Source of the DNA: a virus
Taxonomy: Duplodnaviria > Caudoviricetes
Reading direction: 5' to 3' (one strand)
Length of the DNA stretch: 64,000 nt
Virus record (IMG/VR): IMGVR_UViG_3300035497_000258
Coordinates: 46,347-110,346 of that record
The notes below the pieces were generated by a model, which was not told the DNA's origin, did not search any database, and saw only the letters and a list, made by a program, of their open reading frames with translations. Below are positions 2,389 through 50,528 of this stretch, one piece after another. The translations under genes were made by a program, and so were the position numbers. Every line of letters begins with the position of its first letter. Position 1 is the first letter of the stretch.

Positions 2389-3608
2389 TTAACCCCCCGA
2401 TGTCTCGGAGTCCGCAGGCTTTTCAACAATGCCCTTCTCGCAATCACGTATTAAATCAACATCAAGTTCATCTTCATCAATCACCTGAATCAGAGCCAAA
2501 ACTTTATTATCGCTAAATTTCGTATAAGCGGGGAAAGCATCAACCACAAAGTTAAAAGTAGAAGGATCACCGCTAGAAGCCATACTAAATGTAAAGTTAG
2601 ACTGGACTTTACCATTAGGAATAATAAACTCAGCAGGCATATCTCTACCATCGCTCTCGCGTCTAAACAAGGTATCGCCTTCAATGTAGAAGTTGCCAGA
2701 GAAACTATCAGCAGTAATTTCCATCTACAGCGCACCACTCTTTTTTGCAACATAATAATCAACTAAAATAATCTTATTAGCTTTAATCTTAGAACAAGTA
2801 ATTGTAGTATTACCATTACTATAAGTTACTGCTGTAGGTACACAAGGTTCATCAGTAATATAACCATTATCATCAAGAACCATAATATACATATCCGCAT
2901 TTTCATTATAATTATCACCAGCAGTTAAATTATTACAAGCGGTAATATGTTCAAGAGTAATAGTACCATCAACACTTGCTTTAATTTGAGAAGTAGAATG
3001 AACATAAACGGGAGCCTCATCTTTAGCAGAAATTAGTCTTGCACCAGATAAAATGGAAAATCCTTCAGGAGTTAGTAAAGCATCTTCCATATTAAAAGTA
3101 AGAGTTTTCTCGCCGTCCCAAGCAATTAAGCGCGTGTTACCTCGACCCATTATTATTCCAATAAGCTCGCTACAGCTTATTGCGTTCTCTTATGAACTGC
3201 TATATCTTTATATATACATATAGATTAGACTATATCTTTTTCTCTTATAGAGAAATCTTCCATTTCGACCGCCAATCACTTGCGGCCTACGTCTTTCGAC
3301 TAGTCGTTGAACCTTACTTGAATTCTATATCTTTAGTAAGATATTCAAGCCTTGGCTGCTGATTGCCTAGTGAGGATTTTTACTAGGTTTTCCAGCAATT
3401 AGAAAGATTTGCTAATTCTTATCACTAAGAATAGGGGCAATCATTTACCCTGGGCATAAACTGTGGTAACAGCACCTTCTAAGCTAGAAGTTTTTAAAGA
3501 ATCAAAATAAATAACAGGCTCATTCTTTAAGAATTCTCTTGAACCAAGTCTCATTCTGCTACGCGCACGGAAAACAACATTGCAAATCTCGCGCGATCCA
3601 AACCGCAT
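2389..3608 (-). CDS. Major tail (tube) protein; exons 3608-3447 and 3147-2389; one in-frame TAG at 2727-2725
   Basis: Splicing gives ...TTVYAQG|GRGNTRLIAWDGEKTLTF...; ...KKSGAL*MEITADSFSGNFY... is continuous in frame; position in the morphogenesis operon. Confidence 0.75.
3148..3446 (-). ncRNA. Group I intron, ORF-less, 299 nt, in the tail tube gene
   Basis: 5' exon ends in U (CAGGGU) and can pair with intron GCCCC; intron ends in G; core strings AATTGCTGGAAA, AATCAGCAGCCAAG, GTTCAACGACTA, AAGATATAGTCT; removal restores the frame. Confidence 0.88.
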
Positions 3609-6712: not shown

Positions 6713-7264
6713 TCATTCTCCGTCTTTAGGAATCACCAAAGCTTCCTTTTTAGCATAACTAGGCGTAGCGACACGTCTCTTAGAAGTTTCGACTTCTTCA
6801 ACCTTATCTTCTTTTGATGCCTCATTCAAAGCAATAGCAGAAGTAACATTAAATCCAAGAAAATCTAAAACTGCCTGCCGTTTATTCACATCATTCAAAG
6901 GAACTGAAACTGAATACTTCTTAATTAAATCTTTAACTCCAACAGGAGCGAACTGTAAAGCATCCTTAAACTCATCTAAAGAACATTCATTAATCCAGGT
7001 AGGAATAATATCTTCGGTAAGCCAATATTCAGGCTCTTCTGTCAGATTAAGCCCTTCATGGATAGCTTCCTTGTTCTGAATCAAAAGGAAGTTATACAGC
7101 AGTTCTCTTCCGCCAGGTTGTGCGGCGACCGCAGTTATCTCACCGTATTCGACCTACTTGGTCTCCTTCGGATAGAATTCTCTGCGGATTCCCCGTTCAG
7201 GAATGATATAAACCACTGAACCTTCGCTACGATTAGTTATCTTAATCATATCTGTACTCTTCAT
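6713..7264 (-). CDS. Hypothetical protein after the capsid gene (183 aa, 1 TAG)
   Basis: AGGAG RBS and ATG 7264; MKSTDMIKITNRSEGSVVY...KETK*VEYGE joins track ORF 6713-7084. Confidence 0.75.
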
Positions 7265-7284
7265 TTTTTATCTCCTTTTACTCA

Positions 7285-7320
7285 GCGGTTAGGAGGGGAT
7301 TAACCCCTCCTACCTTTTTA
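7285..7320. terminator. Hairpin after the major capsid gene
   Basis: TAGGAGGGG...CCCCTCCTA inverted repeat. Confidence 0.55.
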
Positions 7321-7323
7321 TAA

Positions 7324-8355
7324 TCAAGCTCCGATAGTATCCAGCTTACCAGCCAGAGTAGTATCCACGTAGGAGCAAATATTGTTAGTCAGCATCACAC
7401 CAACGCCCACCTTACGATAGACCTGGATATCACGAGACCAATCCTCATTCTCGCGCTCGCGCACATTGGTATTACCCTCAAAGGCAATCTTCACGGGCTT
7501 CATATTAGCGCCAGCGGGAATAACCCAAGCATAACCGGGGTCAATAACTTTACGGCTGTTGGTTTCATCCTCATAAGACTGGGGCAGAACGATAACCTGA
7601 CAACCCTTATAATTGCCCAGATAACCCTGATTCCAACGGGTATCACGCATATTATCAGAAACCCAGCCGGTCTCAGGCACCATCTTCACTGCAAATTCAT
7701 AAGTGCAGTAAATAGTAGGCTGACCATAGGCAGAAGCAACCTGAATCAGACGGTCCATAGAAGCCTCATCAAAACGGTTGGTAGAAACTTTATTAGCTGC
7801 AGGGAGCTGGTTAATAGAACTCATAAGAGCACGGGCAATCTCACGATAGATTAAATCATCCATGCCTTCCATGATAATATTTGTGACTTCTGCGAAATCG
7901 GCACGACCATCGAGAAATTCCTCAAAACCAATTTGAGCAGCGCCGCCAATAGCATTGGTCTGCACTTCAAAGCTCTCCCCGCCCAGCTTAAAGACTTCAT
8001 ACACGCCAGCCAGACCAACATGGGTCACGAACTGCTTAGCACGCATATGGCCCATACGGCGAGTAAACACAGGACGATCGCCCTGAGCAAAAGTCTTAGT
8101 CTCAGCGAACTGACCATAACGCTCAAGAACACGAGTAGGAAGAATATCATTCATAGTCTCCTCAATCAGAGAGAAAATAGTATTCTTATTCTCACGGTAC
8201 AGAGCATTAGTACCAGCGAGCTCATTCAGCTCATTCCGCAAAGTCTCATTTAGTGCCCCGTAGGTCATAGAAACACCATTCACGCTATAAGTGCCGGAGG
8301 GATTAGCCTTCGCCACAGTTTTCATTAAAGATAAAAGGTCATTATACTGTAACAT
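7324..8355 (-). CDS. Major capsid protein
   Basis: 343 aa; follows protease/scaffold and decoration genes; biased codon use typical of high expression; no in-frame TAG. Confidence 0.8.
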   Translation of the reverse strand: MLQYNDLLSLMKTVAKANPSGTYSVNGVSMTYGALNETLRNELNELAGTNALYRENKNTIFSLIEETMNDILPTRVLERYGQFAETKTFAQGDRPVFTRRMGHMRAKQFVTHVGLAGVYEVFKLGGESFEVQTNAIGGAAQIGFEEFLDGRADFAEVTNIIMEGMDDLIYREIARALMSSINQLPAANKVSTNRFDEASMDRLIQVASAYGQPTIYCTYEFAVKMVPETGWVSDNMRDTRWNQGYLGNYKGCQVIVLPQSYEDETNSRKVIDPGYAWVIPAGANMKPVKIAFEGNTNVRERENEDWSRDIQVYRKVGVGVMLTNNICSYVDTTLAGKLDTIGA

Positions 8356-10373: not shown

Positions 10374-11960
10374 TTAGCTCATTGCTTCACGATTCTGCAA
10401 TGTTTTATCAGACTTCTCGTCGTCAGCTTTCTCCGGCCGCCCCACTTCATTCTCACTACTATTGTTTTTAGAGGTTGAAGAAGAATGTGCTGCTTGCTAC
10501 TATTGCTGTAACACATTACTATTCATAGTATTACTAGACATAGGCGGCAGCATGATTTCAGACAGATGGAGAATTTCATTCTCAAAATGAGCAGTAGCGA
10601 TAATACTAGATTGAGAGTGACCTAAAGCTATCTGCGGCAACATCTTAGAATAACCAATCTAGGTTTGCTCTTTATACATTTTAGCTATATCTTTATAATT
10701 ATAAATCGTAGTTTCAAGAATCTCGATTCTAAAATTATATTGAGTTTTATCAAAACGCTTAATAATTGTATTTAAAAGCATCTCAAATTGATATACTAAA
10801 TCTCGCATAGTAGCTTCATCGTTTAAGATAGATTTTTCAAGAGCTGTATTACCTTCGGTATTAAACAAATTCTGTGAAACACCTAAATTATTATACACTG
10901 TTCTTTCTACTCTTTGCAAATCATCGCTGGTTGCAGTCGAGTTATCATCCTGCATATCAGCTACTTCTGTATCAGCAAAAGTAGTAAGAACATCAACACC
11001 TACTGCTCTCTTCAACATAGTAACTGCATTATTGTGCAGATCTCGAGCTTCATCGAGGTCAAAGACCAAGTCTCCATTTTTGTCAATCGGCAGCTTTTGG
11101 ATAACTATTTTCAAGAGCTACTGCATGGTCTTTTTACGGTCGAGTTCTTGTGCTTCGTCTAAGTCAATGATAGAAGGAATAGCTTGAATGAGAGGCGGAA
11201 AATCACTATCATTCAAGTTAAATTTAACTCCAACACCAGGATCAAGCATAAACCAGCCATAATCATCACCGACATCTTGCTTTAGTTTTCCCTCTTTAAA
11301 CTTTATATAAGCTTTTTGTAATTCTTTGGGGAAAAGAGACAAGACTTTTAGACGATACTAAACATTAGAGAAACAGGAGTCAAAGAATTGGAGATTAACC
11401 TCTACGATATCCTATCCATTTTTCTTAAATCTACTTCTACAATAACGTGCGGGAAGCTGCTAAACCTAGAAGCTACTGCCCTCGTCAACTAGATATCCGT
11501 AATAAACACCATCTTTTACTACTGCTAAAGCTATATCGCCAAGAACCTTCTTGACGTTAGAATCATCAAAGTAAAATAAAACTTTAGTATAATCTTTAAG
11601 TAATTTACTATCATTAGCTTTATCTTTTGCAAATGGCGTTACGTGCCAATCGTATCTATAAAGAAAAGCAAGATATTTACAAATTCGTTGATATATTCCG
11701 CTAGATTCATAATAGTAATTTGATATTTCTCTTAGAGTATTAATATCTTTGCGCTTGATAGTATTAAGGATAAAATTTTTATCACCATACTAGCGGTGTG
11801 CTTTCTTGAAGCTTCCAATATTTACAACCGCGTCTTCAAGCTTCTTCACACCTATACGAACCGCATTATTCTCGGTAGGCACTTCATCTTCTAAAGAATA
11901 TTGTACTCTACCAAACATATCAAATCCTTTATCATGGATCTCTTCTTGTCTACTTGCCAA
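10374..11960 (-). CDS. Portal protein (528 aa, TAG-recoded)
   Basis: TTG 11960 after GGAGGTG; 1587-nt frame joins track ORFs 11118-11342 and 10659-11114 via KKTMQ*LLKIVIQKLP; size and synteny. Confidence 0.75.
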
Positions 11961-11972
11961 TATCTCACCTCC

Positions 11973-12333
11973 TTAATATCCAGCTTTTTTGAATATATAA
12001 TCGTAGTTTACTCGTTCTTCTTCCCAATAAGGAATTTCAATTAGTTTTATATTATGTTCAGCGCAATAAAGGCGTTTCTTTTCATCATTATACTTTTGTT
12101 GATATAAACCTTTAGTGCCGCCAAATTTACTAACTGCTTGATAATGTTGTTTACCTTGATATTCAATTAGAAAATCAATACGTCCATCATCATCGAAAAT
12201 GGCGAAGTCAAAGCTATCGAAGAGGATTACCATTAGTACTCAATAAATCAGGAAATTCATATTCTTCTTGAAAGTTAATTTCATTAGCTTCTAAAATACG
12301 ATAGATTCTAATTTCACCTCTGCTAGCCCTCAA
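11973..12333 (-). CDS. PD-(D/E)XK-type endonuclease-like protein with an internal +1 frame break near 12210
   Basis: MRASRGEIRIYRILEANEINFQEEYEFPDL..NPLR in frame 0, then FDFAIFDDDGRIDFLIEYQGKQHY in the +1 frame. Confidence 0.6.
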
Positions 12334-13236
12334 TTACACCACCTCCTCATAAAAACACCACTTTAATTTTTCTCCAGTTTCTGGGTGAATACCAGCTGTT
12401 TCTTTTTTACCTAAGCAACAAGCTTTAATGCTTTTTCCAGTATCGAATAGACTAGACCATTTAGCAGCAGAAAGCATAGAATTAAAGATCTAATTAGTAT
12501 TTATACAAATAACCTTTATACTACGTTTATCTTTATACTATCTTGTGTCTATATTTTCTACATCGTTAATATAAATCCAATGTAACGGTATCCCAGATTC
12601 AGGATGTTTGCCAGAGCTTTTTCGCTCACCCCTGCAGCATTGCCCTATTCCAGAAACACTTTTAAGACCGCACCAATTAGCGGCCTCTTTTATTGTTGTA
12701 AAAATTTTTCCAGTCTCTAAATTTTTAACAATTTTACTATTTGGATTTTTATCTCCTTGACATTCTTTAATGCGTTTCTCTCTTTTAATAGGATCATTCC
12801 AGAAATTTTTTACTCCTCGCTATAAATTTTCTTCAGCTTTTTGAGCGAATTCTTTATTAGACCAAGATTTCTTTCTAGCCTCAGAGAAGCTTTTACTCAT
12901 TTTCGCTTTATATTCTGGATTTTTCCACATCTATTCCATATAATTATTTCCACCAGGAGTTAAATTATATCCTTTATCAGAGTTAAAACTATCATAATAA
13001 GCAATCCAATAAACTTCTCGTTCGTTGGCTTCTTGAAAAGTTAAATTATCTTCAATAATTTCATGCGAAAAATTTTCCCATCCATACTTCTAAATTGCTT
13101 TCCAAAATAAAGTGCATCCTTTATAATAAATACCATTACAGCTAAATCGCTATTTAATATTTTGTGTCTAGCCTATATAGATTTTCCCGTTAGTTAAATT
13201 AGTATGTTTATATATACAATATTTCTTTTCTTCCAT
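12334..13236 (-). CDS. Free-standing GIY-YIG homing endonuclease with NUMOD-like C-terminal repeats (300 aa, TAG-recoded)
   Basis: YCIYKHTNLTNGKIYIG*T...AI*KYGWENFSHEII...ANEREVYWI...GYNLTPGG; two C-terminal AGKHPESG/AGIHPETG repeats. Confidence 0.85.
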
Positions 13237-13323
13237 AAGGATTTATACCTCTATTTTCTTATAAAGTTCTCTTTATTAGTTATAAAAAATCAACTAATTG
13301 TATTAAATAAATCTGTCCTAGTC

Positions 13324-15973
13324 TTAGTTAAAGAACATCCAATCTTTAGCGTTAAATCTCTTTTTTCTTTTGACGTTATCTTCTTCTTGTCTAATATAAT
13401 ATAATCCATAACATAAAGCAGAAAATTTATCTTTTTTAATTGATTTACTTGATTGTTTTAATATAATATTTATACCTTCACGCTCTTCATAAAGATTAAG
13501 TAATTCTTCCTTTAATGTAGAGGTTAAAGTAAATGGCATAAGGTATTCCTCACGCTTTTCAGGAGTCATATTCTAGCCAACCTTAGTACCCATTAGTTTG
13601 TTTTTAGCCAATCTAGGTTCAATAAGGAATTTTAATCTACCACTATTAAGCGCAGACTAGACTGTAGAATATGCTTCTGTATTGATAGGAGCATTAGCTT
13701 TAATAATATAAATTGCTCCATCTTCCGTGTCGTTAGTTCTGAACTTTTTATAAAAACCTTCTTTATCATTATAGATACCAAAAGGAGGTAAAACCTCACC
13801 TTCATGTGTTAGCTAGGCCTTTACCATATAATCTAGAAGTCCAATGCCTACATTACATTCTATATAAAACGCTACTCTTATATACGTTCTCTCATGAACT
13901 GCTTGCGGTTTCCCGCAAGATTAGACCATATCATCTTCTCATTGAGAAGCTTTCCGCTTCCACTATCAATAGCTTATAGTGTACTCTCTTTCGAGATGGT
14001 CGTTGAACTTTTTCCTTTAAAAAGGAACTTAGCTGCTGATTAGCATATCTTTCGACTTAGCTTTCCAGCAATTCAAAAAGTTTGCTTATGCTGTCGCCAA
14101 CATAAGGGGCTAAACATTTAACCCGTTGCCATCTATCACAACACGTCTAGCATTATATTTATAAAAAGTCTCCTTGATTTTAATTGCCTAATCTTCGAAG
14201 TGTCCATCTTCTATAGTGTAAATATTAACTAAAGATTTAACAGATTCTCCTTGCGCGTGCGGCGTTACCTTGAAGACCAAGATCTCGCTATTACACCCCT
14301 TACGACCTACATCGACCGCAAGTATATAATATTGACCTTTTGTTGACTTAATAGTTGCTTCATATTCAGGTTTTTGTAATGTACGGTTAGCGTCAAAGCG
14401 CTCACCATCGAAGAAAGCACCCTCCGCAGTTCCAGTCCACTAGCTGCCCAATTATCTTAAATACTAGTCGAATTATTCTAGTATCCATATACTGCTTTAT
14501 CTTTCGATAAAGTTGAGACTATATCATTATTTAAATATATTTAAATATTTTGCACTTCGATTTAAGGGGTTTTCACCCACGCCATTATATTCTTGCGCCC
14601 TACTCCTATTGTCTTTATGACCTATGGGATAGTCGTTGAACTTTTCTCTATTCGAGACTTAGCTGCTGATTACCCAATTTGCTTAATTTTCAAACATTCG
14701 CACTTAAGTTTATTTCATCTTTATGCTGTAGTTTAAGCAACTCTAAGGGCCTTCCAGCAATTCACAAAATTTATAGAGTACAGTCTTTTATACTCTCGGT
14801 CGAAGGAAGCTTCATCGAAAGTTCCCTCTCTCTTTAAATCACTGACGAAATCCTTATTAAGCATCCCTGCAAGCACAGGAACTCTATAAGTACCACCTAA
14901 TATGAAAGCTTTTTCAGGTTCTACTATCATCTAAACAAGAGTAGTGATAAGTTTTTGGTAAGCGAAACTACCCTTATAACCTGCGGTCGTTATATATAAC
15001 TAAGCCTAGTTTAAAACTTCATCCTAGTCCTATGAGCCATCTGCCCGCAATCGCGCAACGTTCATTGTAGGAATTAGAACTTCTTGTAGAATTTTACCAT
15101 CCATACTAGCACATTCCTCTAATACCCCAGCGTTACGACGTTTACCTCTTGTCCGCTCATTTGCCGCAAGGTTATCTATAAATGATTTATTTTTAAACCT
15201 GTATATACAGTAGTCTTTACTCTCTTTTGTTTTACCTGGTCGTCTATCAATCTCGTTATCAAATGCAGGAATCATTCGACATATTTCATCCATTTTTTCT
15301 TGCAGGATTCCAGCGCTCTGTTGTTTGCCTCCTGCGGAAGTAAATAGTTTAGCATTTGGATACAATATAGCTCGTATTATAAGGATTAAAACCGAGAGGA
15401 ATGATTTACTATCATTGTATTCTAATAAGTGCGCAACTACTTATTACGTTCTCTTATGAACTGCTTACGGTTTCCCGCAAGATTAGACTATATCTTCATC
15501 TCATTTAAATAAATGAGAGTTCCCTATTTCGATTTAAGGGATTTTCACCCACCCCGTTAGCTTGGGCCCTACTCCTATTGCTCCTATTTCCGCGGGAGCT
15601 AAAGGATAGTCGTTGAAGCTTATTTCGTTGCCTGCGGATTCCCATGCTTAGAAGCGCACAAAATCTAAGTTTAGGGTTCCCGCAATTAAAGGAATTAGGG
15701 CAATATCATTCACCCACGCGGATAGACGCAATACACATAGCGATATCGCATTGCGACTCTTAAAAATACTCTCTAATAAAACTAGAGTTCAAGTTCTTTC
15801 TTTCTTGTATCATCTCTACCAGTTTGCATGAAATCCACAAATATATCTGGATACATCCTCCACTAAGCTACATACTATCCAGCAATAGGAAGAATAGCTT
15901 TAACTCGCTCTTCTGATAGACCAATTTTATTTCCTCTAGCTTGAGAAAGATTTAATAAGTCTTGGAGTGCCAT
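13324..15973 (-). CDS. terL: Terminase large subunit; exons 15973-15712, 15412-14790, 14448-14121, 13850-13324 (~579 aa, TAG-recoded)
   Basis: Spliced product has Walker A-like PRG|YSKSF, RGKRRNAGVLEE (Walker B), YITTAG, AVDVGR and VIDGNG|LGIG nuclease motifs, and KDKFSA; exon lengths keep the frame. Confidence 0.88.
13851..14120 (-). ncRNA. Group I intron 3 of terL (270 nt, ORF-less)
   Basis: Exon ends GGGU; terminal G; AATTGCTGGAAA, AATCAGCAGCTAAG, GTTCAACGACCA, GATATGGTCTAATC cores; splicing gives DGNG-L-GIG. Confidence 0.88.
14449..14789 (-). ncRNA. Group I intron 2 of terL (341 nt, ORF-less)
   Basis: Exon ends GAGUAU and pairs with intron GUACUC; terminal G; cores AATTGCTGGAA, AATCAGCAGCTAAG, GTTCAACGACTA, GATATAGTCT; splicing gives FDREY|GS*WTG. 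Confidence 0.88.
15413..15711 (-). ncRNA. Group I intron 1 of terL (299 nt, ORF-less)
   Basis: Interrupts the Walker A Tyr codon (T|AT); cores AATTGCGGGAA, AATCCGCAGG, TTCAACGACTA, AAGATATAGTCT; terminal G. Confidence 0.88.
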
Positions 15974-17232
15974 TAAATCTCCCCCTTTATAGCTAATTCG
16001 TGAAGATACTCCATATCTTCTTCGCTCATTTTCTCTTCTTCTTCATAGAACTCTTGGAAATCTTCTGTGCGGAGCTCATGGTAAGAATCCTTGTAATCAA
16101 ACAAATGTTCTTCCGCCATAACTTCATCATTCTCGTCATAACCTAATTCGCCAGCCTCTTTAATAGTTTGCCGCTCATCTTCAAGCTGTCGAATTGCATT
16201 TTCGATAAGATTACCAAGTCCCATTTCCTCAGTAACAAGAGTATGAACGTAGTGTTGTGTATCTTCTATAACTCTATCTACTTTATCTTTAGGTTTATCG
16301 ACATAGTATTTAGGAATGTAGCCATCTTGTTCACAAAGAACAACTAACTCGCCTACTGCATCAATAAACTCGCCCTATTCCGCTTTATTCTAGACGGCGG
16401 TAAATTTCCCGCTTTTCATAAGGGTGTCATAGGCCTTGAGCATTTTCTGAAAGTTATCTATGTCTCCCGCATCTAAAAGCTAATTGGCTTTAAGGGAAGT
16501 CTTGCAGAGTTTAATTAAAGTATCTTTATGGCCGGCAGTTTGAATATCATAAGAAGCCATCATATCATTGTAGAATTGCTCTAATTGAACCCACTCGCTG
16601 GGCCGATAGCTAGTTCCCCATTTAATGCGGAGATAAGTTGTATCTTCTTCTGTTAGCCCAAGATTTTTTTCTTCTTCCAGTATTTCCTAAACAGAAGGAA
16701 AGAGTGATGATGTGCCGGAGTCGGAGCTATTAGGATCCTCTTTTCCGGAGATCGGCAGTTGGGCACTTTCTTCTTCAACTAAACTTATCCACCCAGGTGC
16801 CTTTATTAGCTCCTTGTCCTATGCGAGTTCAACCTAGATCTCATCCTCCGATAAGCCGGAATCCCGCATTGTCTATATGCGCTTTTCCTCTATTTCAGCT
16901 TCTATCCGCTCAGTATCGGCCCATCGCGCGGTCTTCCACTGCGACAGCCGCATTTTAGAGAGATATTTACCTAAGATTGTTTTTCCTGTTAGTGCCTCTA
17001 AGTCATTTTCATATTTCTTTAGAAGGCTATCCCATTGTGTTTTGATGTATGGGACATCTATTTCTTTGAGTAGAGGCTTAAAAGTCTCTGGGTCAAAGTT
17101 ATCCACAAGCATCGTCGCGCATTTTTTACACTCGTTAAGCTTGCCATTGGGATATTTTTCTAAATTATAAGAAGAGTAAAACTCAGAAGCGTTCATTGTT
17201 TGTCTGCAAGTTTTACAATAACATTGTTCCAT
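15973..17232 (-). CDS. Zn-finger-containing protein upstream of terL, candidate terminase small subunit (TAG-recoded)
   Basis: MEQCYCKTC...ECKKC; track ORFs 16873-17253 and 15973-16224 are in one frame separated only by TAGs. Confidence 0.65.
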
Positions 17233-17234
17233 TG

Positions 17235-18269
17235 TCAGCCCTTCTTTCTGCAACTTCTACAGGACTTGCAAATACTGTAGAAAGTATCTTTACTTGCATT
17301 ATTTCTTGAAAAAAAGATACTGTGGCTTGGCTTTTTTTGCCCACAACGAGAACATTTCTTAAAAGGAAGGTCTCTGTAGTGATAATACCAGATTAGATAC
17401 TCCTCTATAGCGGCGTGCGCAATTAGTTTTGGGATTTTAGTAACCCAGAGATTTGAGATGTACTCGATAGAGTATGTGGAATCGAATATTTCGCTAAGTC
17501 CTTGCTATATTTCAAGATTAGAAGCGCCATCGATCTTGCGCTCGCACACATATTTTAGTTTAGGCTCGTCCGCAAGAGCTTTGTCGCAAACTCGGTCGAA
17601 AGATTCTAAGAGATACCACATATCACCCTCGAATTTACCGTAGGCGTCTTGCCGCAACTTGGAGTAATTTTGGAGGATTGCACTTACTACTTCGGTACGT
17701 AGTAGAGATACTCCTTCTGCTGATATTTCGTAATTGGAGGGTACGGTGACGTGTTCATCAAGAGAAGGAAAAATGGACTGCGGGCGCGTCAGCTTTTTGG
17801 GGATTACAGGCTAGGTATAAGATTGCTTTATGACATACTAGTCTTTCCGCATATCTATTATTGCTTTTTTCATTATAAAAGCATCTCTGCCGCTAGCTTT
17901 CTTGATAGCGCTCTACCATTGATCTAGCGACTCCCGCAGTTGAGAGAGAAAGGGAATTGTATCTAAATCGGTTTGTGTAATTGAAATTTTAGGGGTTAGA
18001 GGTGTTTGAATATCAGAAACTAGATTGTAAATTCCATCTTCGCCATTTTCGAGAGAGGAAACTAGGCCTTCGAAGGAAGTTTCTCGTTTATTGATGGTAG
18101 CAAGACGGTTTTCAGTAAGTAGTTTACGTTGTTTCTTTTCAAAGCCGAGTATAAGATAGTCAGCAAGCTTTTCAAGATATTGAGAAGGAGGATTAGGAGT
18201 TTCTTGAAGGATTTGGTCTACTAAAGCTTTGCGCTAGTCTAAATCGGTTATTGTATAATCTAATTTTAT
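17235..18269 (-). CDS. Hypothetical protein with a C-terminal CxxC...CxxC Zn ribbon (~344 aa, TAG-recoded, apparent ATA start)
   Basis: GAGGTG RBS 7 nt before ATA AAA TTA GAT TAT; frame ends KCSRCGQKK...FYSICKSCR...TGA. Confidence 0.65.
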
Positions 18270-43554: not shown

Positions 43555-43640
43555 GGCGGTGTGATGGAACAGGTAGACATAACGGTCTTAAAAACCGTTG
43601 GTTTTATACCGTGAGGGTTCAAATCCCTTCACCGCCACCA
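43555..43640 (+). tRNA. tRNA-Leu(TAA)
   Basis: GGCGGTG/CACCGCC acceptor; ACGGT-CT-TAA-AA-ACCGT; long variable arm; encoded CCA. Confidence 0.9.
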
Positions 43641-43644
43641 TTAT

Positions 43645-43714
43645 GCAGGATTGGCGTAAGATAGCGTATTTGCTCAAAAGGCAAAGAATAGAGGTTCAAA
43701 TCCTCTATCCTGCA
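43645..43714 (+). tRNA. Atypical tRNA-like gene (anticodon loop TCAAAAG, no CCA)
   Basis: GCAGGAT/ATCCTGC acceptor and AGAGG-TTCAAAT-CCTCT T arm; weak D arm; C at position 33. Confidence 0.55.
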
Positions 43715-43720
43715 CGATAT

Positions 43721-43794
43721 GCGGATGTAGTTCAACGATAGAACGCTAGCCTTCCAAGCTAGATATGAGGGTTTGATTCCCTTCGTTCGCTCCA
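43721..43794 (+). tRNA. tRNA-Gly(TCC)
   Basis: GCGGATG acceptor; CTAGC-CT-TCC-AA-GCTAG; TCCA end. Confidence 0.9.
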
Positions 43795-44051
43795 TGGTAG
43801 TCTTTAATCTACCTAATTTTAGTTCTTTACTGATATAAACTCCTTTTTAGTATAGAGGTTTAAGCCGAGGGTTTCTCTATAATATAAACTTCGGCATCTT
43901 TTGAAATTTAATAAAAAATATTATATAATATTTATAGAAATTAAGGAGAGCGTACTAAGGAGGAAGCAAAATGTTTGACGATTTTGATACTCAGATTCAG
44001 AGTGATGAGATGGCATGGAAATATGAGCTTCTTGAGGAGTTAGCTACAGAT

Positions 44052-44129
44052 GTTCCGGTAGTCCAATCGGCAGGAGACAAATGATTTAGGTTCATTTCAG
44101 TGAGAGTTCGAGTCTCTCTCGGAACACCA
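44052..44129 (+). tRNA. tRNA-Leu(TAG) with a short variable arm
   Basis: GTTCCGG/TCGGAAC; AATGA-TT-TAG-GT-TCATT; ACCA end. Confidence 0.8.
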
Positions 44130-44388
44130 GCGATCGCTGCACGTCGCTTAATTATTAGATGCAGTAAAGATACGAGTATGGTATCCGGCGCTTCGATAGT
44201 CGTTAAAGGTGAGATAAAACTGAATCGAAAAGCGTTACATTGGTTTAATACTTAAGCTACCACCGGCTTTAGGAGATACGTGGCATTGTGAGAACGCTAT
44301 ATAAGAAGTAAAGTAAAGTATATTCAGGTTTAAGAGTACCTTGGGTTTTAGAAACTTGTGAAGCCTAAAACATTGAACTCTTTTATAT

Positions 44389-44462
44389 AGCCGATTGGTG
44401 TAGTGATAGCATCCGAGAATTTGACTCTCGTGGTGGAGGTTTGATCCCTTCATCGGCTGCCA
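44389..44462 (+). tRNA. tRNA-Gln(TTG)
   Basis: AGCCGAT/ATCGGCT; CGAGA-AT-TTG-AC-TCTCG; GCCA end. Confidence 0.85.
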
Positions 44463-44465
44463 TAA

Positions 44466-44569
44466 AGACGCTTACAGCAACTTTTTAAAACAAGTAATTT
44501 GATTAATGTACTTTCAAAAAGTAGTGCCTTTCTTTGCGGAGATTGGATAACAAAATTTAAAGCGTCTAG
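44466..44569 (+). ncRNA. ACAGCAA hairpin motif, copy 1 (copies 2 and 3 at 45197-45256 and 45501-45541)
   Basis: AGACGCTT-ACAGCAA...AAGCGTCT-AG; each copy starts 3-4 nt after a tRNA CCA; closing stems covary between copies. Confidence 0.6.
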
Positions 44570-44597
44570 TTTTTATTTAAAAAGGAGCAAGAGAAAA

Positions 44598-44825
44598 ATG
44601 ATTCATTTTAGTAATTGTGGAACTTGTAACTCTGCTTTTAATTTTAATGCGGTTTCTGCGGATGCGGCTGCGCGAGAGCTAGCTATGCATCCCGAGTGGG
44701 CTAGAGATGAAGTGGCGCAGGACCGGGTTTGCCGCAAGTATGGCATTTTCTTAGATCAGATTACAGATGATGAAGCATCTTACATTTCTTCTCTTGTTAT
44801 TGAATACGCGAGGGCAATGCGATGA
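44598..44825 (+). CDS. Hypothetical protein inside the tRNA cluster
   Basis: AAGGAG RBS before ATG 44598. Confidence 0.55.
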   Translation: MIHFSNCGTCNSAFNFNAVSADAAARELAMHPEWARDEVAQDRVCRKYGIFLDQITDDEASYISSLVIEYARAMR

Positions 44826-44968
44826 AATTTAAAGATTTAGAAAGAGGTATGTTTCGCTGGAAAGGCTTAGTTTATACTAAGTTTTGTAGAACGGCAGCGG
44901 CTGTTATTACTTCTGGTAAAGTAGTTAGATTTGAAGCAGAAGAAGAGATAGAAGAAATGTGAAAATAT

Positions 44969-45044
44969 TCTAGTGTAGCTTAGTAGGTTAAAGCCTCCGA
45001 CTTATAATCGGAAAACTAGGGTTCAAATCCCTACACTAGGACCA
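44969..45044 (+). tRNA. tRNA-Ile(TAT)
   Basis: TCCGA-CT-TAT-AA-TCGGA; GGTTCAAATCC; ACCA end. Confidence 0.85.
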
Positions 45045-45116
45045 AGCGCTTAGCGCTACATATACCTTGCCTCCAAGTGTTTTTAGTCCTAAGTATGACT
45101 TAAAACTGCTTGATAC

Positions 45117-45193
45117 GCGTCAGTGGCCAAGTTGGTAAGGCTCCAAACTTTTAATTTGGAAATGCGTGAGTTCAAGTCTCACCTGACGCACCA
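45117..45193 (+). tRNA. tRNA-Lys(TTT)
   Basis: GCGTCAG/CTGACGC; CCAAA-CT-TTT-AA-TTTGG; ACCA end. Confidence 0.88.
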
Positions 45194-45407
45194 TTTTAGA
45201 CACTCACAGCAACCATTCTAAAGATTTAATGTTATAAAATTTTTGCCTGTGTCTAGTTATTTTAAATTTAGAAAGGAGAATATGAATGTACGATATTGAT
45301 GATTTTATTTTTGGAAATGAGACTCCCACTATCAGCAATAGATGAATATGATGTATAATGCGGCCGATGATGGTGGTTCCAAGCCCACGCAAACGCAGAG
45401 GATACAT

Positions 45408-45497
45408 AGAGGATTACCCAAGTTAGGTTATAAGGGGTCAGTTCGCTAAACTGATAGGGCTACGGCCGCAAGAGTTCGAATCTCTTATCCTCTGCCA
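45408..45497 (+). tRNA. tRNA-Ser(GCT)
   Basis: AGAGGAT/ATCCTCT; TCAGT-TC-GCT-AA-ACTGA; long variable arm; GCCA end. Confidence 0.85.
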
Positions 45498-45668
45498 TAG
45501 TAGATACCAACAGCAAACTTTCTGGTGATTGTAGTATCTAGTTTTAAGGCTTCCTTCTTACGAGGGAAGCCTTTCTTTTATGCTCAAAACCCTGGACAAA
45601 AATATATAATTCATAGTTTTAATTTTTTAGAATACTATGAGATAGTATTGAAAAGGGGAGACTTGCAT

Positions 45669-45971
45669 ATGATTACAGCTAGTACAAATAATATTCGCAA
45701 GACTTTCTATAATATGGCTGAGTTCTTATGCGATTATCAAAGTGATGTAGCTGATTTGCCTACTGATTGTGGAGTTGGTTCTAAAGCTTTTGTGATTGAA
45801 AACTCTAATGTTTATATTTTAAATGGTTCAAAAATATGGATTTTGTAGAGTACGACTGGAAATGAAAGTTCATCTTCAGGCGAAAATAATTCTTATGATG
45901 GCGGAGATTTAGATGATAACTTTTCTTCTTCAGGTGAAAACAATCTCTATGATGGTGGCGACTTAGACTAA
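45669..45971 (+). CDS. Small virion-associated protein (100 aa, 1 TAG)
   Basis: EFLCDYQSDVADLPTDCGVGSKAFVIE...KIWIL*STTG, then two SSSGENN-x-YDGGDLD repeats to TAA. Confidence 0.65.
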
Positions 45972-45994
45972 AATTATAGAGGAGTGGAAAAGGT

Positions 45995-46339
45995 TTGGCT
46001 GAAACAACAATAATTAAATTTAAGCGTGGTTCTGCAAATACATGGATTCGATTAAATCCAATACTTGAATCTGGCGAGCCTGGATATGAAAAAGATACAG
46101 GCAAACTTAAAATTGGAGATGGCACTACTGCTTGGAATGATTTAAAATACTTCGAGGGAGAAGCATCCATTTCTATTGATAATAAAAGTTTGACTTTATA
46201 CGGCGATGCCATAGAATTATACGGTTTTAGTGCAGCGACCGCCGGTCAAATCCCTTCTAAAGGGAGCGACGGAAATCTTGAATGGGTTGACAAGAATATT
46301 CCTTTAACTGAAAAGGAAATTCTTTCAATATTAAATTAA
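45995..46339 (+). CDS. Tail-fibre adaptor-like protein (Mtd-N/hyaluronidase N-terminal type domain)
   Basis: KFKRGSANTW...NPILESGEPGYEKDTGKLKIGDGTTAWNDLKY. Confidence 0.75.
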   Translation: MAETTIIKFKRGSANTWIRLNPILESGEPGYEKDTGKLKIGDGTTAWNDLKYFEGEASISIDNKSLTLYGDAIELYGFSAATAGQIPSKGSDGNLEWVDKNIPLTEKEILSILN

Positions 46340-46355
46340 AAGGGGAGGTTATCAA

Positions 46356-47108
46356 ATGGTAAAAGTTCTTGACCAAGCTGGTTTAGTTACATTATGGGCG
46401 CAAATTAAGGGCTATAATGCAGACGCTATTTCTGAAGCTTTAACTAACTATAAAACTAGCTCTGAATTAGTTGAAATCTTAAGTGATTATGTCACAGAAG
46501 ATAAACTTCAAGAAGCTATTGCAGAAGTTACTACAGACGTAACTAGAGTATTTACTTATAAGGGTAGTATTGATAATTATTCTGAATTACCTGCTGATGC
46601 AGCTATTGGAGACGTTTATAATGTCATAAATGCAGACGCAGATAATGGTATTAATCCTGGTGATAATGTTGTTTGGACTGGAGATTCTTGGGATAAACTT
46701 GCTGGCTCTATTGATCTGAGTAATTATGCTACTAAGTCTGATCTTGATAATAAAACTACTTAGAGCATTAAAGACGTGAATGGCGAGTCGCTTGTTTGGA
46801 ATGAAACTTCTGGCGGTGGCGCTAAATTTATTCATACTGATGGTACTGAATCTTTCGTTGGAGTAAATGATGGTGGCGCCAATGGCATGGTTGCTCAAAT
46901 TTATGCTGATAAAGAGGTTAATGGCGACTGGATCGGTTCACGTTTAAACGTGTATCAAAAAGGTATGTTCTATCACAATGCAGAAGATAAAGCTTCTGGT
47001 AATTATGTTGCTGATGATCCTGAGCATGAAGTAGCAGTTAAGAAAGATATCGAGGCTGTTATTCCTGAAGCCTTAACCGAGGATGAAATTAAAACTATTT
47101 GCGTATAA
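46356..47108 (+). CDS. Tail fibre-like protein (250 aa, 1 TAG)
   Basis: YKGSIDNYSELP...GDVYNV...WDKLAGSIDLSNY; DNKTT*SIKDVNGE joins two track ORFs. Confidence 0.7.
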
Positions 47109-47126
47109 GGGAAGGAGGACAATTAA

Positions 47127-47489
47127 GTGTCTAAATTCCTAGACCAATCAGGCGTAAGTATACTATGGACTCTTATGAAAGATAAGGGTTCAAAAAGAGA
47201 TAATTATTTTAATTATGAAGATACCTATGTCCCTGATAATGGACAAATTTGTTTTGTAGATACCGCTAAAGATGGTCTACAAATAAAAATCGGTGATGGT
47301 ATTACTCCATGGATCTAGCTTTCATACCTCTAGGCATCTGAGGATTCCGCGGGTATTATGAAACTTTATCAAAGTTTAGGAACTAATACAGATGGAGCGA
47401 TAAGTTAGAAAGTTATTACCGATGAATTAGAGAATAAATTTAGCGTAGAAGTGAATAACTCTCAAGAGCTTATTCGTTTTTATAAATAA
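47127..47489 (+). CDS. Tail fibre-associated protein (120 aa, 3 TAG)
   Basis: KIGDGITPWI*LSYL*ASEDSAGIMKLYQSLGTNTDGAIS*KVITDEL. Confidence 0.7.
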
Positions 47490-47511
47490 AAAATAAGGAG
47501 ATTTTTAATTT

Positions 47512-48711
47512 ATGTCAATTTTTGAATATACTGCTGGCTCTGTGCTAAGCCAAATTGAGCTAGGCGGCGTTACTTATTTATTAAAAGACGCTGATGCACG
47601 TAGTATTTTAGACACTCTGGGTAATGCTTCTTTAAAGGATGTTTCTACTAGCGGTGTTGCTGAAGGCGAGAATGGTCTTGTCACAGGTGCTCAAGTTCAG
47701 TCTGCTATTGCTGGTTTAACAGGTGTTCTGCATTTTAAAGGCAAGCTTGATGAGTTGCCCACTGATGTTTCTACATATGAGAGTGGCGATGTCATCATTG
47801 TTGGTACTAAAGAGTATCTTTTTTATGATGGTGCATTTACTGAACTTGGTGATGAAGGCGCATATGTCCCTAAGACCCGTAAGATCGCTAATATCGCTCT
47901 CGACGCTGACATCAGCGTAGCTTCTTTACAATCTGCGCTTGGCTTAAAGGCTCTTGCTTATAAGGATTCAGCTTCTGGCACTGTTGAAGTTACTACTGGT
48001 ATCAATGGCGCTTCTTATACTCCTGCTGGTACTGTTTCCACCACTCTTTCTACTGAATCTAGTACTGTGAGTTCTTCTGGTAAATTTACTCCTGAAGGTT
48101 CGGTATCTGGTAGCGTGACTCCTTCTGGTAAAGTGACACTCTCTGTTGATAATACTAATGGCGTTACTCTTGGTGGCACTGTATCAGCTCCTACAATTAC
48201 TGTGACTCCTTCTACTACTACCGTAAAGCATATTTCTTCTGTGGGTACTCTTCCTTCTTATACAGCGGCTTCTTATACCGCTCCTAGCGTATCTGAATCT
48301 ACTAGTAATTTTGCTACTTCTGGCGTGACTGCTACTGTGAGTGGTGAAACTCTGACTTTAGGTACTGCTTCTACTAGTGCCGCTGTGACTTCTACTGGCT
48401 TTAAAGCTGGTTCTTTCACTGATGGTACATTTTCTGCTGGTACTCTACCTTCTCTTGATAGCGGCATTACTGTGGTTACTGGTATTGAATCAGCTACTGC
48501 TACCGCTCCTACCTTTACCGGTAATAAATATTCTGCCACTTTCGCAGGGAATACTAATACAATTTCTGCTACATTTAGTGGTTCTGAAGGTGACGTCAGT
48601 GTAAGTGGTAGTTATACTAAAGCTACTGATGTTTCTAGTACATTTAAGGGTACAGCAGATACTATTACTCCCACTCTGACAAAGAGTACAAAGACTGTTA
48701 CTGTTTCCTAA
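47512..48711 (+). CDS. Ser/Thr/Gly-rich fibre-like structural protein
   Basis: 399 aa; repeated TPxGTVS / PTFTG motifs. Confidence 0.7.
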   Translation: MSIFEYTAGSVLSQIELGGVTYLLKDADARSILDTLGNASLKDVSTSGVAEGENGLVTGAQVQSAIAGLTGVLHFKGKLDELPTDVSTYESGDVIIVGTKEYLFYDGAFTELGDEGAYVPKTRKIANIALDADISVASLQSALGLKALAYKDSASGTVEVTTGINGASYTPAGTVSTTLSTESSTVSSSGKFTPEGSVSGSVTPSGKVTLSVDNTNGVTLGGTVSAPTITVTPSTTTVKHISSVGTLPSYTAASYTAPSVSESTSNFATSGVTATVSGETLTLGTASTSAAVTSTGFKAGSFTDGTFSAGTLPSLDSGITVVTGIESATATAPTFTGNKYSATFAGNTNTISATFSGSEGDVSVSGSYTKATDVSSTFKGTADTITPTLTKSTKTVTVS

Positions 48712-48733
48712 TTAAAAGGACGGTGTGAAGTAA

Positions 48734-49918
48734 GTGGCAGATTTAGCTAATATTAAAGTAGGCAGCACCACTTACACTCTAAAAGATACTGCTGCGAGGG
48801 ATCGTCTTGACATTATTGAGACGACCCTCGCATCAGGACTTATCTTTAAGGGTACAGTCTCAAGTGCTGCCGATATTACAGGATTAACGGATTATAAAGT
48901 TGGTTGGACTTACAAAGCCTCTGCCTCTTTTAGTATAACAAATATAGGAAGTATAGAATCAGGAGACATGATTATTTGTGTTTCTGCGTATAGTTCTTCC
49001 TATAAAGCAACAGACTGGACTGTGGTTTAGAATAATGTTGATACATTTACTGGCGCAAGTGCGAGCACGGCAGGTACAAGGGGTTTAGTGCCCTAGCCTT
49101 CCGCAGGTAGCCAATCTAAGTTCTTACGTGGAGACGCGACTTGGGCTTCTATAGACTCAGTACCTAAATTAACCACTGCCCGCACAATAACTGTGGACGG
49201 CGATGAGTCGGGCTCTGCTTCTTTTGATGGTTCTTCTAATGTTACTATCAATCTAACTGATAATCGCTTTGTAATGGGCACTCAGACAGCTTCTACCGCA
49301 GATTGGACTGGTAATTTACATGGTGTCAAAGCATTATATGATGGACTTTGTATTAATTATTGGCTTCCTTATGCTTCTGTGAGTAGTACTAATGTTACTT
49401 TAAATTTAACTCTCGACGATGGTACTACTACAGGCGCTATTGATTGTTATAGATGGGCAACTTCAAGATTAACTACGCATTATGGGGCCAATTATCTTGT
49501 TACATTAACCTATCGTTCTGGAGTAAATATTAATGGAACTACTTATACTGGTTGGTGGGCTACTGGTGATGCAAATTCTACTTACTCTAATGCTTCACTG
49601 GGATAGGGATATGTAACGTGCTCAACAGCGGCAGCTACTACTGCCAAAACAGCTTCTTTAAGTAGCTATTCTTTAACTACTGGAGGCATCGTTGCTGTTA
49701 AATTTACTTATGATGTACCTGCAAATGCTACTTTAAGCATTAATTCTAAAACCGCAAAAAGTATTTACTATAACGGAGCAGCTATTAAAGCTGGTGTAAT
49801 AAACGCTGGAGATATAGCTTACTTTATCTATAGTTCTCAATATCATTTATTGGGGAAAAATACCACTTTGGATGACGTAGCTTCTGCTTTAGATAGTGTT
49901 ACATGGTTTGATTTTTGA
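48734..49918 (+). CDS. Tail fibre protein (394 aa, 3 TAG)
   Basis: DWTVV*NNVD...AGTRGLVP*PSAGSQSKFLRGDATW...SNASLG*GYVTCSTAAATTAKT. Confidence 0.75.
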
Positions 49919-50136
49919 TATTAGGGGACTCGTTTATGAGTCCCCTTTTTTCTTTAGATTTAAGGATCTTTTTTACAAAAATCTTTGAAATTTCAAAAAA
50001 AATATCATATAATATTATTGTAGTTAAGGGAACGAAGCTACAACAAGGTTTACTTTTATGGGTGTTTGAAAAAGGGTTGGTTAACGAGGAACCCAAATCC
50101 TCCATCGAGCTGTGGAACGTAGCCTGGGCTCTTTAT

Positions 50137-50210
50137 GGTAGATTAGTTTAATGGTAAAACGAGATACTTGTAATATCTTGTTGCCTGTTCGATTCAGGCA
50201 TCTACCTCCA
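50137..50210 (+). tRNA. tRNA-Thr(TGT)
   Basis: GGTAGAT/ATCTACC; AGATA-CT-TGT-AA-TATCT; TCCA end. Confidence 0.85.
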
Positions 50211-50213
50211 AAC

Positions 50214-50299
50214 GGAGCGGTACTGAAGCGGTCATAACAGCCTAGTCTTGAAAACTAGCGTGTCTACGAGACACGGGGGTTCGAATCCCTCTCGCTCCG
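50214..50299 (+). tRNA. tRNA-Ser(TGA)
   Basis: GGAGCGG/TCGCTCC; CTAGT-CT-TGA-AA-ACTAG; long variable arm. Confidence 0.85.
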
Positions 50300-50453
50300 C
50301 GTCATCAAGATAAGAGCCTTCTCGTGGCGATGATGTTTTAACAAATCTTATCAATTATATAAATTAGATAGCAATAGAGAAAAGAATCGGAAAAATTAAA
50401 TGTAGAAAATAATGTAGAAAGAACCTAAAGACTAAATAAGCTATCTTACATAT

Positions 50454-50528
50454 GGAGGTGTAGTGTAATGGTAGCACAGAGGGCTCTAACCCCTCGGGTC
50501 TTGGTTCGATTCTGAAGCGCCTCTGCCA
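50454..50528 (+). tRNA. Amber-decoding tRNA (anticodon CTA), probably Gln-charged
   Basis: GGAGGTG/CGCCTCT acceptor; GAGGG-CT-CTA-AC-CCCTC; G discriminator and CCA. Confidence 0.85.

Follow-up and report, generated by a model that had tools for sequence, protein, structure and literature searches.

The deoxyribonucleic acid stretch analyzed here, 64,000 nucleotides (nt) long and called the window in the following, comprises positions 46,347 to 110,346 of the IMG/VR record IMGVR_UViG_3300035497_000258. Its source is a tailed gut phage that decodes TAG as glutamine, and its relatives are phAss-1, the Enterococcus phages EF1/H1 and the Geobacillus E3-type phages. Under the standard code the region of the large terminase gene (terL, encoding TerL) consists of many short open reading frames (ORFs); reading TAG as glutamine yields a clean order of genes on the minus strand. 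In this order terL is a single gene in four pieces, which are separated by three group I introns, and it is followed by a free-standing gene for a GIY-YIG homing endonuclease, a small nuclease gene and the portal gene (Table 1).

Table 1. Features of the terL region and of other elements discussed in the text. Positions refer to the window; aa, amino acids.
Feature	Position	Strand	Description
terL	15973..13324	-	four pieces of one gene
terL exon 1	15973..15712	-	262 nt; ATG at 15973; ends with first base of the Tyr codon in the Walker A loop (..PRG-Y); tblastn match to H1 TerL residues 20-95
Group I intron 1	15711..15413	-	299 nt; ORF-less; Rfam RF00028 75.3 bits (match 15464-15788); P1 GGGU/GCCC; last base G
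terL exon 2	15412..14790	-	623 nt; ATPase domain, ends ..FDREY; H1 TerL residues 97-309; phrog_15503
Group I intron 2	14789..14449	-	341 nt; ORF-less; Rfam 87.4 bits (match 14495-14829); P1 GAGUAU/GUACUC; last base G
terL exon 3	14448..14121	-	328 nt; start of nuclease domain, ends ..VIDGNG plus first base of Leu codon; H1 TerL residues 308-416
Group I intron 3	14120..13851	-	270 nt; ORF-less; Rfam 108.2 bits (match 13902-14129); P1 GGGU/GCCC; last base G
terL exon 4	13850..13324	-	527 nt; remaining nuclease domain including stop; H1 TerL residues 414-591; phrog_24618
Cassette	12322..13271	-	950 nt; endonuclease gene plus own leader, placed between terL and the gene that follows; 26 nt in G001; blastn breakpoints
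GIY-YIG homing endonuclease gene, free-standing	13236..12334	-	300 aa; 7 in-frame TAG; Pfam PF01541 24.3 bits; phrog_314 'homing endonuclease' E 3.8e-36
Diverged tract	12321..12200	-	directly downstream of the endonuclease gene, ends at 4-nt insertion; comparison with G001
Small nuclease gene, Vsr/DUF2726-like	11973..12333	-	split in two frames (12333..12214, 12233..11973); phrog_9084, phrog_559
Portal gene	11960..10374	-	phrog_2739; downstream of the small nuclease gene
Upstream gene	17271..15973	-	432 aa; phrog_3314; zinc-finger-like N-terminus; uninterrupted in the window
Group I intron 4	3148..3446	-	299 nt; ORF-less; in virion structural gene; Rfam 94.8 bits; P1 GGGU/GCCC; 3' domain like introns 1 and 3
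tRNA, anticodon CUA	50454..50528	+	ARAGORN; Rfam tRNA 38.1 bits

The exon boundaries of terL were determined by tblastn with the annotated large terminase subunit of Enterococcus phage H1, combined with reading of the sequence. All four exons are collinear with H1 TerL and occur in the same order. Joined together they form 1740 nt encoding 579 aa, with 14 TAG codons and without internal TAA or TGA. The peptides generated at the three junctions (PRGYSKSF, REYGSQW and DGNGLGIG) contain no insertion or deletion in comparison to six intron-less homologues.

A Pfam search with the four separate exon pieces returned neither a terminase nor any other family, and a full-length homologue matched Terminase_6C only with an E value of 0.079. 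The PHROG terminase families 5909, 9 and 5713 gave E values of 2.9e-5 to 8.7e-4, and a sequence search of the PDB with exon 2 or with a profile of five TerL sequences yielded nothing relevant. Relatives are annotated as terminase in GenBank, and the portal gene found downstream of the terL region also speaks for a terminase. For the fold, an AlphaFold model was generated of TerL from locus L017, an intron-less homologue that is 72% identical, based on an alignment of 25 sequences (predicted local distance difference test, pLDDT, 86.1). The best Foldseek matches of this model were the large terminases T4 gp17 (E 8.9e-17), Sf6, HK97 and D6E, and the model shows the TerL fold with an N-terminal ASCE ATPase and a C-terminal RNase H-like nuclease. 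Intron site 1 maps to the P-loop of the model, between strand 78-82 and helix 89-103, site 2 lies just past helix 287-294 between the two domains, and site 3 is located four residues past the invariant D400 at the end of strand 396-400. We also observed that the PHROG families 15503 and 24618, both of 'unknown function', represent this terminase lineage, one its N-terminal and the other its C-terminal half; they probably arose from source genomes in which introns and TAG codons break up the gene.

Conserved glutamine positions were used to assign TAG. At the TAG positions of terL, the six intron-less homologues have glutamine in 38 of 84 alignment cells, and TerL positions 67 and 382, both TAG in the window, are glutamine in all six. 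The invariant glutamine of the YIGQT motif in the GIY-YIG protein (Q23) is likewise a TAG codon in the window and a glutamine in 15 of 15 homologues. These positions therefore support TAG as glutamine codon, and together with the tRNA with anticodon CUA they identify genetic code 15; the related phAss-1 is catalogued in the 'code 15 clade'. The tRNA is needed because terL contains 14 and the endonuclease gene seven TAG codons. It has no special likeness to the tRNA-Gln(UUG) of the window and is thus uninformative on the amino acid carried. This suppressor tRNA gene is part of an array of 11 tRNA genes on the plus strand (43555-50528, ARAGORN).

All three terL introns lie above the gathering score of Rfam RF00028 (50 bits; model positions 1-253 matched), with E values from 1e-18 to 1e-28. 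The Rfam total for the window is four group I introns, and terL holds three of these. At the 5' side, the Rfam matches of introns 1 and 2 begin 77 and 40 nt too far upstream, P1/P2 being placed in coding sequence; at the 3' side the matches halt at P9, which is 51, 46 and 51 nt short of the true ends of introns 1, 2 and 3, respectively. Because the Rfam 5' ends of introns 1 and 2 enter the exon, we set the boundaries by homology and sequence reading. With these boundaries every 5' exon ends in a U that can form a wobble pair with a G of the internal guide, each intron ends in G, and removal of the introns restores the frame of the host gene. P1 covaries with the exon at site 2, the pairing being GAGUAU/GUACUC in the window and GAGUUU/GGACUC in the relative L142. 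The minimum free energy fold of intron 3 recovers P1, P2, P4-P6 and P9 (z = -4.0), and three of the seven 'terminators' reported by a terminator scan correspond to the hairpin P1 or P2 in introns 1 and 3. A promoter scan was uninformative (20 promoter-like sites, 18.7 expected). No ORF longer than 47 aa is present in introns 1 to 3. Inteins were rejected since the insertions are out of frame and match an RNA model, and group II introns since no such Rfam match occurs in the window.

An initial annotation made from the letters of the window alone had described a terL gene that is interrupted by three ORF-less group I introns in the Walker A motif, the inter-domain linker and the nuclease motif, and that needs three splicing events plus TAG decoding. 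This description was borne out: the collinearity with H1 TerL and the fold match of the L017 model to T4 gp17 confirm the gene, the L017 model and the junction peptides confirm the sites, the Rfam scores of 75.3 to 108.2 bits and the lack of longer ORFs confirm the type of intron, and three introns and 14 TAG codons have to be dealt with. Introns 1 and 3 both break a codon after its first base; skipping of exons 2 and 3 would consequently stay in frame (262 + 527 nt). Such exon skipping has been reported for another multi-intron terL in the available part of that publication (PMC11878797) and is only a possibility for the gene described here.

The distribution of the introns was determined in related genomes. 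The nearest record, G001, is 96-98% identical over the region and served as comparison genome for the window. In G001, exon 2 runs directly into exon 3 with blastn breakpoints exactly at window positions 14790|14448, reading ..FDREYGSQWTG... Intron 1 of G001 is 99% identical over 212 nt and carries an HNH ORF of 281 aa (phrog_59, E 1e-74), which by our reading of the alignments appears to sit at the short P6 hairpin loop of the window intron; intron 3 is present as a 97% identical copy. Another record, L012 (96-98% identical), has no intron 2 in the part covered, contains intron 3 (Rfam 106.6 bits) and lacks a GIY-YIG gene. G001 and L012 represent a natural intron-2-less allele.

Among 17 relatives from phage, IMG/VR and metagenome collections, site 1 is occupied in 2 of 14 covering loci (G001 and L021, the latter with an intron at the same codon as in the window), site 2 in 0 of 14 and site 3 in 2 of 13 (G001 and L012). 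A profile-based scan of IMG/VR with two patterns added 74 further TerL loci, five of which have an interrupted terL (L113, L114, L142, L179 and L181); HNH or LAGLIDADG ORFs are present in four of these insertions. L113 and L114 are interrupted after residue 346, and L114 has a second interruption with a LAGLIDADG ORF near residue 549. HNH ORFs are found in the insertions after residue 202 of L179 and near residue 520 of L181. L142, a more distant relative than G001, has an insertion of 993 nt that contains an HNH ORF at site 2 and one of 255 nt without an ORF at site 3. Over its first 150 nt, window intron 2 shares 74.7% identity with this HNH-bearing intron at site 2 of L142, and window intron 3 is 76% identical to the site-3 intron of L142. 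The ORF-less introns 1 and 2 of the window have endonuclease-bearing counterparts in G001 intron 1 and at site 2 of L142, respectively, and in view of these HNH-bearing versions the ORF-less state looks like the result of endonuclease loss from ordinary mobile introns.

Further evidence for occupied sites was obtained from proteins. When L017 TerL was compared with 1.84 billion protein representatives, 1567 matches resulted, the best 150 of which were used to count fragments. At site 2, ten fragments start at residues 294-297 and five end at residues 295-298; at site 3, seven end at residues 404-408 and four start at residues 397-412. Some of these fragments may be contig ends, and only those with intron-like tails were counted as evidence: the tails of four fragments ending at site 2 (P0151, P0169, P0173 and P0226) resemble the read-through into intron 2 of the window, and two fragments read into a site-3 intron. 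Together with the occupied loci, these fragments mark the three sites as recurrent landing sites in this TerL family.

Other interruptions were noticed in the course of these comparisons. L023 has a 303-nt insertion in terL (878-1180 of this locus) near residue 113-117, which does not match Rfam at gathering score and may be an intron of another type at another site. Ten long TerL relatives of 624-1027 aa (P0142, P0200, P0225, P0234, P0237, P0245, P0246, P0249, P0250 and P0268) consist of two matched stretches, the second resuming at residues 72-98; they may carry inteins at or close to the Walker A loop, where intron 1 is located. In some relatives a group I intron interrupts the upstream gene (phrog_3314) behind residue 270; it is ORF-less in L021 and has an HNH ORF in L011 and L149. 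P1 of this intron covaries with the exon as well (GGGGAU/GUCCCC versus GGCGAU/GUCGCC).

The introns of the window resemble each other in a mosaic fashion, as the initial annotation had already pointed out. Positions 91-233 of intron 1 and 147-280 of intron 2 share 109 of 128 aligned bases, positions 207-299 of intron 1 and 178-270 of intron 3 share 81 of 91, and introns 2 and 3 have only core blocks in common (39/44 and 21/24). In the Rfam alignment the block of introns 1 and 2 is flanked by the P7 5' strand and the P3 3' strand, and we take it to be the P7.1/P7.2 extension typical of subgroup IA. The same block recurs in the introns of L181 (86% identity) and L021 (74%) and in the head of P0211. 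The block of introns 1 and 3 spans P7' via P9 to the 3' end and is also carried by intron 4, which splits a gene between ..VYAQG and GRGNTR..; both exons of this gene match phrog_2729 and meet at profile position 47.

A GGGU exon end and a GCCC guide are common to window introns 1, 3 and 4, the site-1 intron of L021, the site-3 intron of L142 and the residue-346 intron of L113, which suggests that new sites are chosen, or filtered, by complementarity to P1. Introns 1, 3 and 4, which have one guide sequence in common, are interpreted as paralogues. Intron 2 appears to be a chimera of a site-2-specific 5' part and an intron-1-like peripheral module. This make-up fits recombination between intron copies; the alternative is differential loss of modules.

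The second element of the region is the GIY-YIG gene, which starts 88 nt past the terL stop codon. Its match to PF01541 lies above the cut-off of 22.6 bits, and 289 homologues were found at E <= 1e-5, the closest of them with 52-61% identity and the best one, at 61%, of the same length. In an alignment of 16 sequences the window protein has kept every invariant residue; Y9, Y20, G22, R30, E74 and N91 are conserved or invariant, Y20, G22, R30, E74 and N91 being among the invariant ones, and are presumably equivalent to the catalytic residues of I-TevI. Both C-terminal repeats align with those of the homologues, and the TAG density of the gene is that of the neighbouring late genes. No further (DNA-binding) Pfam domain was detected in the window copy at E <= 0.01, and no Rfam intron surrounds the gene. 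These results confirm the free-standing, TAG-containing endonuclease gene beside terL that had been noted initially; its endonuclease activity is a prediction from the sequence, and the target discussed below is a proposal.

In comparison with G001, the GIY-YIG gene has been cleanly inserted between two genes. The two genomes match again from 13272 onward, without a single difference in 13272-13299, and terL itself differs by 0-9 (mostly 1-5) positions per 100 nt, the terL side of the cassette being at this background. On the other side, the tract 12321..12200 contains 28 differences in about 120 nt, whereas the following 300 nt have 1-2 per 100 nt. Since the diverged tract is found on the downstream side only, a short stretch from a far more distant genome came along with the cassette there. 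Such a one-sided downstream tract is expected from an endonuclease that targets the neighbourhood of its own insertion site.

In relatives, this position is rarely taken by a GIY-YIG gene. No GIY-YIG match is present there in 11 closer loci or, at E <= 1e-4, in the 74 further loci. L059 has a different GIY-YIG gene (36% identity) at the same position, in the order terL end, endonuclease gene, small nuclease gene, portal gene, and among 84 IMG/VR loci with GIY-YIG genes it is the only one that adjoins the portal gene of this phage family. IMG/VR scans with the protein and with the 16-sequence alignment found relatives with at most 42% identity over the full length or 47-56% over the N-terminus alone, and in the phage collection the identity was at most 37%. 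A different cargo was observed in L125, where the space separating terL from the small nuclease gene holds no endonuclease gene but two genes encoding 359 aa and 156 aa (6735-8269 of this locus); the 156-aa protein contains a motif that by eye resembles a cytidylyltransferase and is a candidate for such an enzyme.

Taken together, we consider it likely that the region combines three mobile group I introns endemic to this terminase lineage with a separate free-standing endonuclease. For the production of terminase, the transcript would lose all three introns, which sit in the Walker A loop, in the ATPase-nuclease linker and four residues after a catalytic aspartate of the nuclease, and the phage tRNA-CUA would then read the 14 TAG codons. 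The introns would belong to a mobile population endemic in the lineage, with the same sites being occupied sporadically and sometimes by HNH-bearing copies. The ORF-less copies would be derivatives that lost, or never gained, an endonuclease gene and that persist because they splice. The GIY-YIG gene would be a separate selfish element inserted cleanly between terL and the next gene; most likely, its enzyme cleaves genomes that lack the endonuclease close to where the gene itself is inserted, and repair then copies the gene in. Introns in the vicinity (intron 3 at 0.6-0.9 kb and intron 2 at 1.2-1.6 kb) would at most hitch-hike.

A closer connection had been suggested by the initial annotation, which raised collaborative homing as a possibility. 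In such a pathway the GIY-YIG enzyme would cut intron-less terL exactly at an intron site (3 or 2), the intron would protect its carrier, and both would spread together. A free-standing endonuclease gene 88 nt past a gene with ORF-less introns is the arrangement described for this pathway in the available part of the source (PMC3984707), and intron 3 occurs without an endonuclease-bearing version in all four of its genomes (window, G001, L012 and L142). In Lactobacillus delbrueckii phages, annotated terL features cover distant GIY-YIG relatives of 33-35% identity. The presence/absence comparison that had been put forward as a check gave a divided answer: the window has both intron 2 and the GIY-YIG gene and G001 and L012 have neither, but this is one genome against two near-identical ones, and introns 1 and 3 also occur without any GIY-YIG gene, in G001 (introns 1 and 3), L012 and L142 (intron 3), as does the intron at site 2 of L142. 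Moreover, HNH genes of their own are found in this L142 intron and in G001 intron 1, and the exon tracts beside introns 2 and 3 are at background divergence from G001, the diverged tract being located downstream of the endonuclease and away from terL. In the comparison with G001 no co-conversion tract connects the endonuclease gene to an intron site, terL being at background from exon 4 to exon 3. The comparative data thus lend no support to collaborative homing, which we regard as unlikely. Trans homing by co-conversion, as described for T4 MobE, is a looser alternative: a cut near its own gene would be followed by repair tracts of up to about 2 kb that drag along intron 3 and sometimes intron 2. 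Measured from the start codon of the endonuclease gene, intron 3 lies at 615-884 nt, intron 2 at 1213-1553 nt and intron 1 at 2177-2475 nt, and co-conversion up to 2 kb, with such arrangements predicted in intron-rich phage genes, is reported in the available part of PMC2790892. That intron 2 and the endonuclease are either both there or both missing is in line with this pathway too. However, the event that brought in the diverged flank left terL unconverted, and intron 3, the nearest to the endonuclease, is present regardless of it; trans homing is therefore possible but doubtful. Rather speculative, and in our opinion improbable, is a spread of ORF-less introns within and between genomes without an endonuclease, by guide-directed reverse splicing into GGGU sites, in which the GIY-YIG gene would add only occasional trans mobilization that is gated to late infection by its seven TAG codons.

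Two further explanations deny mobility or function. The GIY-YIG gene could be an inactive remnant, or put to other use, with no present role in mobility. The need to read through seven TAG codons, the presence of the GIY-YIG domain only and the lack of any relative above 61% identity among the 289 homologues could be interpreted in this way, but the frame is open over the full 300 aa when TAG is glutamine, the invariant residues and the C-terminal repeats are preserved and the TAG density is not unusual for late genes, so that we think this quite unlikely. That terL is dead or fragmented, or an assembly artefact with unrelated insertions in place of introns, is extremely improbable. Many short ORFs under the standard code and separate pieces without a Pfam terminase family would be in agreement with a dead gene; against this, the four exons are collinear with intact homologues in exact frame without internal TAA or TGA, the Rfam E values are low, and the intron-3 arrangement is common to three independent records. 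An assembly artefact was rejected since the same arrangement occurs in independent records.

Several observations weigh against the interpretation as endemic introns plus a separate endonuclease. The window is the only genome showing both this terL and the GIY-YIG gene, and the joint occurrence of intron 2 and the endonuclease, both being absent from G001 and L012, fits collaborative homing equally well. The direction of change, gain or loss, is ambiguous from presence/absence for intron 2, the HNH gene and the GIY-YIG gene. One of the two patterns used for the 74 further loci spans the intact Walker A loop, hence introns at site 1 are under-sampled there. The diverged flank marks the end of recombination and not the cut site of the enzyme. 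Finally, the terminase fold was assessed on the 72% identical L017 protein, which stands in for the spliced protein of the window, and terL splicing is something that we infer from sequence.

Introns in terL have been described in Bacillus phages of the Bastillevirinae. According to the available part of that report (PMC11878797), 5 of 52 terL genes are interrupted, in some cases by two or three introns, splicing was shown in vitro and in vivo, and HNH and Vsr-like endonucleases are located in the introns. The window likewise has group I introns in the large terminase gene; it differs in being from a code-15 gut phage, in a TerL that is remote from solved and Pfam terminases, in all three introns being ORF-less and in splicing being deduced by comparison with intron-less genes. 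Twort orf142 (Landthaler & Shub 1999), as discussed in the available part of the same publication (PMC11878797), is similar in having three group I introns in one late phage gene; it shows exon skipping and encodes the tail tube protein, not a terminase.

For both homing pathways the published cases, as far as covered by the available parts of the papers, provide a direct comparison. For collaborative homing, the target of a free-standing enzyme is the intron insertion site (PMC3984707), and in trans homing nearby cleavage mobilises an intron within about 2 kb (PMC2790892). The window shares with these cases a free-standing endonuclease gene beside a gene with endonuclease-free introns, and its introns 2 and 3 lie within the roughly 2-kb co-conversion range of the endonuclease, as for T4 MobE (PMC2790892). 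Whereas the cleavage site was mapped in the published cases, the only informative recombination tract in the window lies away from terL.

Similarities also exist to crAss-like phages of the Delta and Zeta groups, which the available part of PMC7886860 describes as intron- and intein-dense and stop-codon-recoded. Like the window, these are gut phages with TAG or TGA read-through in late genes and many group I introns in core genes; however, they belong to the Crassvirales and TerL of the Delta group typically holds inteins, whereas the relatives of the window are phAss-1, EF1/H1 and E3-type phages. TerL of phAss-1 (proposed Phassvirus; PMC10607447) is 43% identical to that of the window. This phage also uses TAG for glutamine with tRNA-CUA genes and has the same order of upstream gene, terL, small nuclease gene and portal gene, but its terL contains no intron, and the word 'intron' does not occur in the main text of the paper. 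No description of introns in this phage lineage was found in the open-access literature.

Multi-intron terL genes, free-standing endonucleases and intron-rich recoded phages are already published, and the region described here is a case of ordinary turnover of selfish elements in a gene that such elements favour, which leaves the understanding of how they work unchanged. Its value is practical and comparative. Gene callers fragment this terminase, and correct annotation of the code-15 lineage requires reading TAG as glutamine as well as removal of introns. Three near-identical genomes that differ by an intron, an intron-borne HNH gene and a GIY-YIG gene appear to show gain, endonuclease loss and intron loss in progress. 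The intron-less and endonuclease-less alleles of the relatives are natural substrates for testing collaborative or trans homing.

The small nuclease gene is present between terL and the portal gene in all relatives checked, with an intact 121-aa copy in G001 and L012. It contains a hot spot for short insertions just after conserved Pro-Leu-(Arg) codons (window 12200-12233, minus strand), and every insertion contains TAG. Four nt (TAGC) are inserted in the window, L142 and L148, six nt in-frame in L021 and L011, seven nt in L168 and eight nt in L024. The plain form was found in 58 of 66 loci with a matchable motif; a 14-nt spacer in L144 was taken as a mis-anchored match. Since the same frameshift occurs in three diverged genomes, it is not an assembly error. 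With the 4-nt form the zero frame reads CUU UGA C, which we take to be the +1 frameshift site of prfB; this reading arises automatically from the downstream TTT GAC. The frameshifted copy may be a pseudogene, a case of programmed frameshifting or an endonuclease-resistance allele. A scar of the GIY-YIG insertion was rejected, since L142 and L148 have the same 4-nt insertion without a GIY-YIG gene. The small nuclease gene of L059 is also frameshifted, with one extra base at residue 66 (1300-1345 of this locus); the copy is thereby broken in both endonuclease-bearing loci (window and L059), a number too small to interpret. At the other end of the region, just upstream of the packaging genes, a gene at 17235-17873 (minus strand) matches a PHROG 'sigma factor' family (phrog_5767).

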